From a virus (taxonomy: Duplodnaviria; Heunggongvirae; Uroviricota; Caudoviricetes): 10,481 bases of DNA. Below the pieces are notes generated by a model. It saw only the letters and a list, made by a program, of their open reading frames with translations, was not told the DNA's origin and ran no database searches. The translations under genes and the position numbers were made by a program. Positions 1-2,087 of the stretch are shown here, piece after piece. The stretch lies in the IMG/VR virus record IMGVR_UViG_2690316224_000018. One strand, 5' to 3'. The first letter of the stretch is position 1; the number at the start of each line of letters is the position of its first letter.

Positions 1-584
1 ATCATCCACCCAACTTAACTGAAACCGGGATGAAGTATATGCATATAAAGTTCACTTTGCCAAACTTCAGTATAAAAAACCACATAAAAAATAGGGTGTG
101 ATAAAAAATACCGTAACAATAAAGCAAAGGATTATAAATTCCGTTACAGTTACAAATGATACTCAAGAAACAATTCCTTAGGAAAAACTTATTTACAGCC
201 AATAAGTAAGACACTTATATGATATCAAGTTTTCATAAAACATAACTAGGCTAAATAGCTGCGCCTAATACCGCTACACTTTTGCCAGCCCATGTTTGCC
301 TCCGGGTATTGACCCCTTCTCTACGCAACTTCAGTTCCCACCACCAACTTTGCGGCAGCTTTGTAGGATCAATGTCTAAAAGAATAATGGTGACCGATAA
401 GAAAACGACTGAATAACTGCAAATTTTCGCTCAAAACCTTCCTGTCAGATCCATAGCGAATCAAGTGCTGAATGTCACAGTATCGAACAGAAAACAGTGA
501 CGATCTAACCCTTCAAGAATATTCTACGATTGTTCTGTTTAGGAAAAGCAAGGCGGGAAGTCGGGAGATAAGTCATTGATAAAG

Positions 585-646
585 TGGCGGAGAGAGGGGG
601 ATTTGAACCCCCGGTAGAGTTGCCCCTACTCCGGTTTTCGAGACCG
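585..646 (-). tRNA. Truncated tRNA-Ser (CGA-anticodon type) 3' segment, ~62 nt from anticodon stem to CCA; probable prophage att core (attR-type junction)
   Basis: Minus-strand reading 646->585 gives CGGTCTCGAAAACCGGAGTAGGGGCAACTCTACCGGGGGTTCAAATCCCCCTCTCTCCGCCA: anticodon loop CTCGAAA, a long variable arm typical of Ser tRNAs, T-arm GGGGG-TTCAAAT-CCCCC, acceptor 3' strand and CCA. The sequence 5' of it on the minus strand (647-675) has no GGAGAGA acceptor strand or D-arm, so the tRNA is incomplete. Assignment to an enterobacterial serU-like tRNA is from memory, not a search. Confidence 0.6.
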
Positions 647-891: not shown

Positions 892-1138
892 TTTACAATA
901 ATAATATCGGTAATTATTGAGTAATAATAAATTGATTATTGCAAATGTAATTTAATTCCATCTTCGCGTTATATTCCAATCTTTAATCTCCGCATGGAAC
1001 AAGTTGCATGCGTGACTATATTAAGACAACTTATAACCACCAAAACATTTGCTTTGCAAACAAAAACAGTGACCATTGACTCTAAGAAAATTCCGATCTA
1101 TTGTTAGGGTCATCAAAGTTACTTAACAGTATTCCGAA

Positions 1139-1240
1139 ATGAAAATGCAAAGCAAGCTAATTGTCTTATTAAACATTATCATTGCATTTATATTATTTGA
1201 GCTTTTAGCTCAAAAATTTGGTTTGAGCACATTATTTTAA
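1139..1240 (+). CDS. Hypothetical small hydrophobic peptide (33 aa, MKMQSKLIVLLNIIIAFILFELLAQKFGLSTLF), probably one transmembrane helix
   Basis: Hand-translated ATG(1139)..TAA(1238-1240). Possible sigma70-like promoter upstream: TTGACT (1076-1081), 17-nt spacer, TATTGT (1099-1104). Strong plus-strand terminator ~150 bp downstream. Weak or absent Shine-Dalgarno; AT-rich context makes chance ORFs likely. Confidence 0.2.
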   Translation: MKMQSKLIVLLNIIIAFILFELLAQKFGLSTLF

Positions 1241-1389
1241 AGCAAGATAAACAATATCGGGCACTCTAGTTTTTATAATTAACAATTAAACGTCCATAAA
1301 ATGTTATTTACTTTTGTTCGCTATTGTCATATCTTAATATAGTGGCTTACGCCACTCTACTTTCATCATATTTTGTACGTTTATGTACT

Positions 1390-1419
1390 CGCCATGAAGC
1401 TCTTTCATGGCGATTTTTT
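1390..1419 (+). terminator. Rho-independent terminator, plus strand
   Basis: 9-bp perfect stem CGCCATGAA (1390-1398) / TTCATGGCG (1404-1412), 5-nt loop GCTCT, followed by A-TTTTTT (1413-1419). On the minus strand the stem is not followed by a T-run, so it is unidirectional (plus). Confidence 0.5.
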
Positions 1420-1505
1420 ATTCTTAATCCAAGAACATACTCCCTATCTATAGCAAAATCACTTTTTGAACAAAAGAATAACGTATTTAGGTAATCATTA
1501 CGAAT

Positions 1506-2087
1506 TTACCCTATAGGTGCTACTGGCCATTCAATATCCTGTGCAGTTGACGTATCAACACGGTTCAGCAATACCCGATACTTTTTCCATGCTTCCAGCA
1601 ACGAGATTTCTTCCTCCGTTGCGATCTCCAGATCTACAGCATCCTGAAGTGGCGCTATATGCTCACTGGCTACCTGCATCAGGCTGTTTTTTGTTTCTTC
1701 CGCCTCCCGGATCCGGAACAGTTTTTCTGCTTCCGTATCCTTCACCCAGGCTGTGCCGTTCCACTTCTGATATTCCCCTTCCGGCGATAACCAGGTGACA
1801 TTTTCCGGTAACGAGCCAAGTTCAGAAATAAATAACGCGTCGCCGGAAGCCACGTCATAGACGGTTTTTCCCCGATGATCTTCAACGAGATGCCACGATG
1901 CCTCATCACTGTTGAAAACAGCCACAAAGCCAGCCGGAATATCTGGCGGTGCAATATCGGTACTGTTTGCTGGCAGACCTGTATGAGGCGGAATATATGC
2001 GTCACCTTCACCAATAAATTCATTAGTTCCGGCCAGCAGATTATAAATTTTTATGGTCCGTGGTTGTTCACTCATTCTGAATGCCAT
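1506..2087 (-). CDS. tfa: Tail fiber assembly protein Tfa (193 aa), chaperone for the side tail fiber
   Basis: Translation begins [54 protein letters not shown]..., recognised as lambda Tfa / Rac TfaR family. Start ATG overlaps the stf stop as TAATG (shared A at 2087), implying translational coupling. Confidence 0.9.

Follow-up and report, generated by a model that had tools for sequence, protein, structure and literature searches.

Small membrane peptides and phage-borne accessory genes

YncL is a validated inner-membrane stress protein encoded on the core chromosome of E. coli, with 31 amino acids in strain K-12 (b4598; MNVSSRTVVLINFFAAVGLFTLISMRFGWFI). Its production at a near-physiological level was reported to cause sublethal membrane depolarisation, a phage-shock response, nucleoid condensation and decreased protein synthesis, and to reduce viability (PMC12542507). 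Both heat shock and growth in minimal medium induce the protein (Hemm et al. 2010, cited in PMC12542507). The yncL gene of Salmonella was described as sigma-S dependent, and its transcript was first catalogued as the small RNA (sRNA) STnc1110 (PMC5437024). The RseP protein was reported to cleave YncL in vivo (PMC10470546). YohP and other stress-induced small membrane proteins of E. coli (the set of Hemm et al. 2008/2010) have fewer than 50 amino acids and a single membrane helix and are missed by standard annotation; the production of YohP-type proteins was reported to depolarise the membrane sublethally and to slow metabolism (PMC12542507).

Type I toxins such as Hok, Ldr, TisB, ZorO, Ibs and ShoB are also small hydrophobic peptides, and belong to systems in which a small RNA, encoded antisense or next to the toxin gene, base-pairs with its mRNA. 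Lambdoid phages, in turn, carry morons, extra genes equipped with their own promoter and terminator, among them lom and bor of lambda and the gene for gp15, the superinfection-exclusion membrane protein of HK97.

The DNA considered here, termed the window, is a stretch of 10,481 nucleotides from a virus of the class Caudoviricetes (IMG/VR record IMGVR_UViG_2690316224_000018) and comes from a lambda-like E. coli prophage, of whose late region it forms the right end. An initial annotation had pointed to a possible small membrane peptide encoded at positions 1139-1240 downstream of a promoter-like element, and had listed type I toxins, phage membrane modulators and superinfection-exclusion factors as functions of such peptides. 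As judged from comparative sequence analysis, the open reading frame (ORF) is very probably a real gene, namely a diverged yncL copy carried by lambda-like prophages beside their tail-fibre genes. The features of the region are the following.

960-1505, plus strand: conserved AT-rich cassette of ~550 bp, from BLAST searches and alignments to relatives L001-L007
1076-1104, plus strand: promoter-like element of the sigma-70 type, TTGACT-17-TATTGT, from a consensus scan
1139-1240, plus strand: yncL-like gene with an ATG start, 33 codons and TAA, from the ORF list
1341-1388, plus strand: 3'-UTR block with the hairpin AGUGGC-UUAC-GCCACU (1341-1356, 6 bp) and a U/A-rich linker containing a small hairpin, from alignments and variable-site density
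1389-1422, plus strand: intrinsic terminator with an 11-bp stem, a 3-nt loop and then TTTTTTATT, from a terminator scan
1506-2087, minus strand: tail fibre assembly gene tfa, from the ORF list and from RefSeq, which annotates an identical gene in L001
2087-5158, minus strand: side tail fibre gene (1,023 amino acids), from the ORF list

Genomic setting and distribution of the cassette

The tfa gene is the last of the late genes and is convergent with the cassette, which adjoins it downstream; lom and J are found on the minus strand, beyond the side tail fibre gene. On the other side of the cassette the neighbouring DNA varies, and may be a b-region with AraC, IS2 and int, the sitABCD genes, or an MFS transporter gene. 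That the same cassette stays with tfa while its other flank differs indicates that it behaves as one unit.

The G+C content of the region is 29-30%, compared with 46-56% in the tail genes. An autonomous cassette located between phage genes, with deviating base composition and variable flanking cargo, corresponds to what is termed a moron. Additional likenesses to the lambdoid morons are the promoter-like element and terminator of its own, the position among or after late genes, the presumed expression in the prophage state, and the predicted envelope or membrane location of the product. The gene is, however, much smaller than known morons and is convergent with the late operon, whereas these are embedded in it in the same orientation, and the peptide bears no sequence relation to the lom, bor or HK97 gp15 products (no match in PHROGs).

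In a search of 5,426 complete E. coli genomes, the stretch 850-1500 was found in 830 (~15%); searches with positions 1040-1300, which hold the ORF, and with the 3' part (1300-1430) each gave 827 genomes. The cassette also occurs in the functional phages mEp332, PhiR70_1 and ev099, where it occupies the part of the b-region that separates tfa from the gene of an AraC-type regulator, IS2 remnants and int; four phages of the collection searched contain the ORF. No relative was detected among the GTDB species representatives (185,579 genomes), either with a 29-nt pattern from the 3' block or with peptide patterns, and scans of viral and metagenomic sequences yielded 75 more loci and no lineage beyond the three described below. 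Thus, the searches made found no relatives outside E. coli prophages.

Between tfa and a partial tRNA-Ser gene there are 860 bp, in which the records inspected annotate only hypothetical genes, at positions equivalent to 994-1107 (PhiR70_1) and 724-891 (ev099). The tRNA-Ser fragment (window 575-645, sense on the minus strand) extends from the anticodon arm to the CCA end, with a few 3'-flanking bases in addition, and is 100% identical to the core tRNA-Ser locus of 5,422 of the 5,426 E. coli genomes; ARAGORN predicted no complete tRNA at this place. It also lies inside the genomes of PhiR70_1, ev099 and mEp332, between tfa and the AraC-type regulator gene, which suggests either the remnant of a former tRNA-Ser attachment site or captured host DNA.

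The yncL-like gene and selection on its reading frame

As stated in the initial annotation, the ORF spans positions 1139-1240 of the plus strand, from ATG to TAA, and is translated as MKMQSKLIVLLNIIIAFILFELLAQKFGLSTLF (33 amino acids). The hydrophobic core of the peptide (L7-A24) is flanked by K2 and K6 on one side and by K26 on the other, as read from the sequence, and the AlphaFold2 model consists of a single helix of residues 3-26 (mean pLDDT 84).

Taken alone, the ORF, its peptide and the promoter-like element do not rise above chance in DNA of 29-30% G+C, a caveat already raised in the initial annotation. The segment 969-1494 holds five other ORFs of 26-56 codons, and promoter-like sites number four against 4.2 expected from shuffled sequences. 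What raises the ORF above chance is its in-frame conservation, with a dN/dS ratio of 0.07, and its homology to YncL.

Relatives of the region were gathered independently of the ORF, by whole-region BLAST, with exact DNA patterns in the 3' block, and with an exact pattern 120 nt upstream. The 83 loci obtained were reduced to 55 distinct sequences, of which 47 were full length, and the aligned stretch comprised positions 925-1510, so that ORF 724-891 falls outside it. Three lineages were distinguished by their identity to the window, of 95-100%, about 91-94% and about 78%.

Conservation of the ORF in homologous prophage regions, suggested in the initial annotation as a check, was clearly found. 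The ORF is intact in 46 of the 47 full-length sequences, the sole exception being a metagenome contig (L089) in which ATG is changed to ATA. Even the 78% lineage (A21 type) retains 33 codons from ATG to TAA, and its indels all lie outside the ORF, including a 5-nt deletion immediately past the stop codon; a frameshift that the intactness count had flagged in this lineage was an alignment artefact of that deletion. In contrast, the five control ORFs (969-1076, 994-1107, 1021-1116, 1324-1494 and 1373-1453) are broken in 11-31 of the 47 relatives. For one of them, 994-1107, the start codon or the frame is gone in 23 of 47 relatives, and this ORF is probably not a gene. In the spacer adjoining the 3' side of the yncL-like gene (1241-1312), 45% of the alignment columns are variable and several indels occur.

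The substitution pattern is that of a protein-coding sequence. Between the main and A21 lineages, the method of Nei and Gojobori gave 12 synonymous and seven non-synonymous differences on 19.7 and 79.3 sites, respectively, that is, a dN/dS of 0.07 (binomial P = 4.6e-5); nearly all of the information on divergence comes from the three lineages, all of them from E. coli. Variable sites of the ORF are distributed 8:2:15 over codon positions 1, 2 and 3 (chi-square 10.2), a periodicity among the strongest of all 99-nt windows of the alignment, equalled or slightly exceeded only by windows of the same phase that overlap the ORF. Non-synonymous changes account for 12 of 25 single-site changes, compared with 17.6 +/- 2.2 expected from random placement (P = 0.013). 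Taken together, the sequence comparisons identify the ORF as being under purifying selection as a protein.

Some variation is present in the peptide. The non-conservative changes E21K and A24D, in or near the predicted helix, count against the reading as a gene. Met3 (ATG) was found solely in the window and in its closest relative, L001, and Ile (ATA) is the consensus of all the other relatives. Three natural loss-of-function variants of the yncL-like gene are available: the start-codon mutant L089; a database protein (P0003) of 43 amino acids, in which the A-run that follows codon 26 is one A longer and shifts the frame; and strain 504838 (L008, positions 2501-2640), in which an IS1 insertion is accompanied by deletion of the ORF.

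The gene has been almost invisible to gene prediction. The exact peptide was predicted as a gene just twice in ~15 billion predicted proteins, and a phmmer search of 1.84 billion representatives returned nothing beyond the peptide itself and a single frameshift variant. The peptide had no match in Pfam or PHROGs. Literature searches with the peptide sequence and for prophage YncL and STnc1110, together with the YncL papers by title and abstract, yielded no earlier description of the gene.

Homology of the peptide to YncL

When the peptides of all three lineages were compared with the 18,950 models of NCBIfam by hmmscan, one family was matched, NF000537, "stress response membrane protein YncL". 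The E-values of the three variants were 1.3e-5, 3.7e-5 and 2.8e-5, with scores of 25.0, 23.5 and 23.9 bits against a curated cut-off of 35 bits, and the matches covered positions 1-28 of the 30-position profile. None of nine shuffled peptides matched anything in NCBIfam. In a BLASTP comparison with K-12 YncL, made with compositional adjustment, the peptide scored 26.9 bits (E = 2e-7); the two align from Met1 with no gaps, 11 of 28 positions being identical and 18 of 28 positive. Not one of 100,000 shuffles reached the score of the YncL alignment, including those that kept the polar-hydrophobic-polar layout. The positions common to both proteins are M1, S5, K/R6, V9, L10, N12 (an Asn within the helix), A16, L19, F20, L22, K/R26, F27 and G28.

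The match is thus significant, full-length and not explained by hydrophobic composition, which makes the peptide a YncL homologue in the broad sense. It also shares with YncL a length of about 30 residues (33 and 31) and, by prediction, a single membrane helix. The transcript would be short and stand-alone, and open to being mistaken for an sRNA, as described for the Salmonella gene (PMC5437024). Another likeness is the C located directly 5' of the -10 hexamer, comparable to the CTATACA sequence, apparently of the sigma-S type, upstream of K-12 yncL.

The differences are equally clear. Identity is about 35-39%, and with scores of ~25 bits against the 35-bit cut-off the peptide is not a YncL equivalog or orthologue by the NCBI rule; the low score also explains why PGAP leaves the gene unannotated in all the genomes inspected. 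The gene is not at the core locus between patD and ortT, where K-12 yncL lies, but in the prophage b-region beside tfa. Neither the flanking DNA nor the 3' UTR is related to that of K-12 yncL, and no DNA homology of the cassette flanks to the K-12 locus was detected. Whereas K-12 yncL is preceded by the Shine-Dalgarno sequence AAGGTGG, the prophage gene lacks one, and its peptide has a C-terminal tail two residues longer (LSTLF instead of WFI). Since both the equivalog cut-off and the locus set it apart, the peptide was classed as a diverged prophage-borne paralogue of YncL and not as YncL itself. YohP and the other small stress-induced proteins showed no sequence similarity to the peptide; YncL alone was matched.

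Transcription signals and the conserved 3' block

The promoter-like element reported in the initial annotation is indeed present upstream of the ATG, at 1076-1104, and the -10 hexamer ends 35 nt 5' of the start codon. Transcription is predicted to begin at about position 1111, giving a leader of ~27 nt. Only five of the 29 positions of the element vary among relatives, compared with about 45% in the flanking spacers, and the 78% lineage keeps the -35 hexamer together with the T, the A and the final T of the -10. The poor ribosome-binding site that had been pointed out earlier was confirmed: no Shine-Dalgarno motif precedes the ATG in the window (...ACAGTATTCCGAAATG) or in any lineage. This absence is the main internal argument against efficient translation.

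Upstream of the promoter-like element there is another conserved block (975-1075, plus strand), which contains two near-palindromes, CGCATGGAAC/GTTGCATGCG at 991-1012 and TTTGCTTTGCAAA around 1048-1065, and which may be the binding site of a regulator. This block is kept in strain 504838 in a different, Qin-like context beside ydfJ, where IS1 cuts the cassette shortly before the ORF.

The terminator scan gave three sites against 0.5 expected, the one at 1389-1422 being the strongest, and all of its stem pairs are kept in relatives. It is predicted to work on the plus strand only and to shield tfa from antisense read-through. These signals imply a transcript of ~310 nt (roughly 1111-1420), convergent with tfa. 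Two terminator-like hairpins inside the ORF (1196-1214 and 1208-1228) were rejected as not conserved.

Within the intergenic region, conservation is highest in the 3' block (1341-1420), although in the viral and metagenomic loci it is partly enforced by the search patterns; it is also seen in loci obtained by BLAST or with the upstream pattern. A stretch of 48 nt (1351-1398), reaching into the terminator stem, is identical between lineages that are otherwise 78% alike. No Rfam family matched the cassette at gathering level. Models of several sRNAs gave scores below threshold on the 3' block (VrrA 25.2 bits, MicC 24.6, Hrs12 22 and Esr41 19.9), and membership in a MicC-, VrrA- or Esr41-like family was discarded, as the matches fall far under the gathering scores and reflect a generic hairpin plus terminator. 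None of 21 predicted pairs in the block showed a compensatory change, which is due to the block hardly varying. Accordingly, segment 1341-1422 has neither the Rfam match nor the covariation-supported structure by which an Hfq-dependent sRNA would be recognised. The whole transcript folds better than shuffled sequences (z = -3.6). Pairing of the linker to the start region of yncL was unremarkable (rank 184 of 2,990), as was its pairing to the start region of the cassette's own gene. Possible interpretations of the block are an sRNA module, either Hfq-binding or 3'-derived, and a recombination tract.

Relative A37 (L006), compared with A21 (L005) and the window, has a mosaic breakpoint at the terminator (window 1413-1505): it belongs to the main lineage left of about position 1413 and to the A21 lineage right of it. 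This indicates recombination between cassette variants at or near the conserved block.

Proposed function and alternative explanations

By analogy with YncL, the product is likely a membrane peptide with one span, whose role would be to modulate the membrane potential of the lysogen, so that "phage membrane modulator" is the most plausible of the functions listed earlier. The initial proposal, a gene that has its own promoter and encodes a small membrane peptide, agrees with the selection on the frame, the YncL homology, the predicted helix of residues 3-26, and the conserved promoter-like element and terminator. From these features we infer that the gene is transcribed and translated, and that its peptide enters the membrane, affects membrane potential and may benefit the phage or its host.

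A possible mechanism can be outlined as follows. In the lysogen, the ~310-nt AT-rich unit, a moron-type cassette located just beyond tfa with its own sigma-70/sigma-S-like promoter and intrinsic terminator, would be transcribed on its own, separately from the late operon. The peptide would insert into the inner membrane with its Lys-rich N-terminus inside and, like YncL, could partly dissipate or tune the membrane potential. For the lysogen, the outcome might be a stress-tolerant, low-metabolism state, or interference with those steps of superinfection by other phages that depend on the membrane. In the lytic cycle, late transcripts that are antiterminated and extend beyond tfa would cross the cassette in the antisense direction and thereby silence it. 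That the locus is a real gene for a single-span inner-membrane YncL paralogue, in a lambdoid moron-type cassette acting by this mechanism, is considered probable.

Other readings of the cassette may be weighed against the same evidence, beginning with those that deny the peptide a present role. A phage-captured yncL-like gene might now be untranslated or unexpressed, hitch-hiking with conserved neighbouring DNA, as could be suspected from the missing Shine-Dalgarno motif and from the rarity with which gene prediction has called it (twice in ~15 billion proteins). H-NS often silences foreign DNA that is rich in A+T, and probably binds the cassette. The start-codon mutant (L089), the frameshift variant (P0003) and the strain in which an IS1 insertion removed the ORF (L008) fit such a relic as well. 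However, a relic would gain non-synonymous changes, stop codons and indels at the rate of the spacer, whereas the ORF has a dN/dS of 0.07, no indels and an intact frame in 46 of 47 relatives next to a spacer that is 45% variable, and it was kept while the control ORFs were broken; a silent relic is therefore quite unlikely. Alternatively, the ~310-nt transcript or a shorter 3' fragment might be a non-coding RNA of the Hfq type, with the ORF incidental or a vestige of a captured yncL. It is the 3' block and not the ORF that is most conserved, and with its hairpin, U/A-rich linker, terminator and U-tail it is shaped like the 3' end of an enterobacterial sRNA; the weak matches to several sRNA models, the folding of the whole transcript (z = -3.6) and the ORF without a Shine-Dalgarno motif also agree with an RNA function. 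Nevertheless, all of the Rfam matches are far under their gathering scores, no helix is backed by covariation, and the linker does not pair remarkably with the yncL start. The dN/dS of 0.07, the third-position bias and the protein-level homology to YncL would be left unexplained. Hairpin 1196-1214, moreover, is disrupted in other lineages by substitutions that change amino acids, and so RNA structure does not account for the constraint on the ORF. A purely non-coding function is thus very unlikely.

The remaining readings retain the peptide and add an RNA partner or an RNA function. If the ORF encoded the killer peptide of a type I toxin-antitoxin system, its toxicity would be checked by an antisense RNA. 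The size and architecture of the peptide fit a type I toxin, its homologue YncL was reported to lower viability and to depolarise the membrane (PMC12542507), and an antisense RNA covering the ORF could arise from a promoter-like site on the minus strand (1330..1301). The in silico search for an overlapping antisense RNA, proposed in the initial annotation, spoke against this option: site 1330..1301 belongs to the four matches found at chance level and has a -35 hexamer that differs between relatives, no minus-strand terminator-like site occurs in 600-1600, and no antisense or divergent small RNA gene that might pair with the mRNA was detected. The predicted leader (~27 nt) is also short, unlike the long structured 5' UTRs of tisB, zorO and hok; the peptide has no similarity to the toxin families in NCBIfam, Pfam and PHROGs; and YncL itself is in no known toxin-antitoxin pair. 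A type I system appears very improbable. In a further reading, the cassette would produce a dual-function RNA: the YncL-like peptide would tune the membrane potential of the lysogen, as a lysogenic-conversion or superinfection-exclusion/dormancy device taken over from a stress protein of the host, and the almost invariant block 1341-1420 would act as an Hfq-type regulatory RNA, released or in cis, on host or phage targets. This combination is an unlikely one.

Relevance of the yncL-like prophage gene

The YncL paralogue in its moron-type cassette is not a new kind of system. It is, however, the first indication found of a phage carrying a copy of YncL, a host stress peptide that depolarises the membrane and condenses the nucleoid. 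Small membrane proteins are systematically overlooked by annotation, and the yncL-like gene, present in ~15% of complete E. coli genomes, is unannotated in the records inspected. Its occurrence in the culturable lambdoid phages mEp332, PhiR70_1 and ev099 makes deletion and testing possible. The copy offers a simple, testable model in which a peptide of 33 residues might allow a prophage to alter the physiology or the phage susceptibility of its host. The gene also provides a natural set of variants that can guide structure-function work on the YncL family, with 13 positions in common (identities or K/R exchanges), 11 of them identical, including the helix Asn and the C-terminal K/R-F-G.

Additional features of the window

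On the minus strand, positions 1546-1744 yield a full-length match to Rfam family RF02111, "IS009", with 222 bits (gathering score 117). The match is wholly inside tfa, and this "RNA family" coincides here with coding sequence. The side tail fibre protein contains a low-complexity run of repeats, ~350 residues long and rich in Ala, Ser and Thr (…AASSASSA…). Its length differs among relatives; the corresponding gene has 3,399 nt in L001, and is shorter or divided into two coding sequences in the phages.
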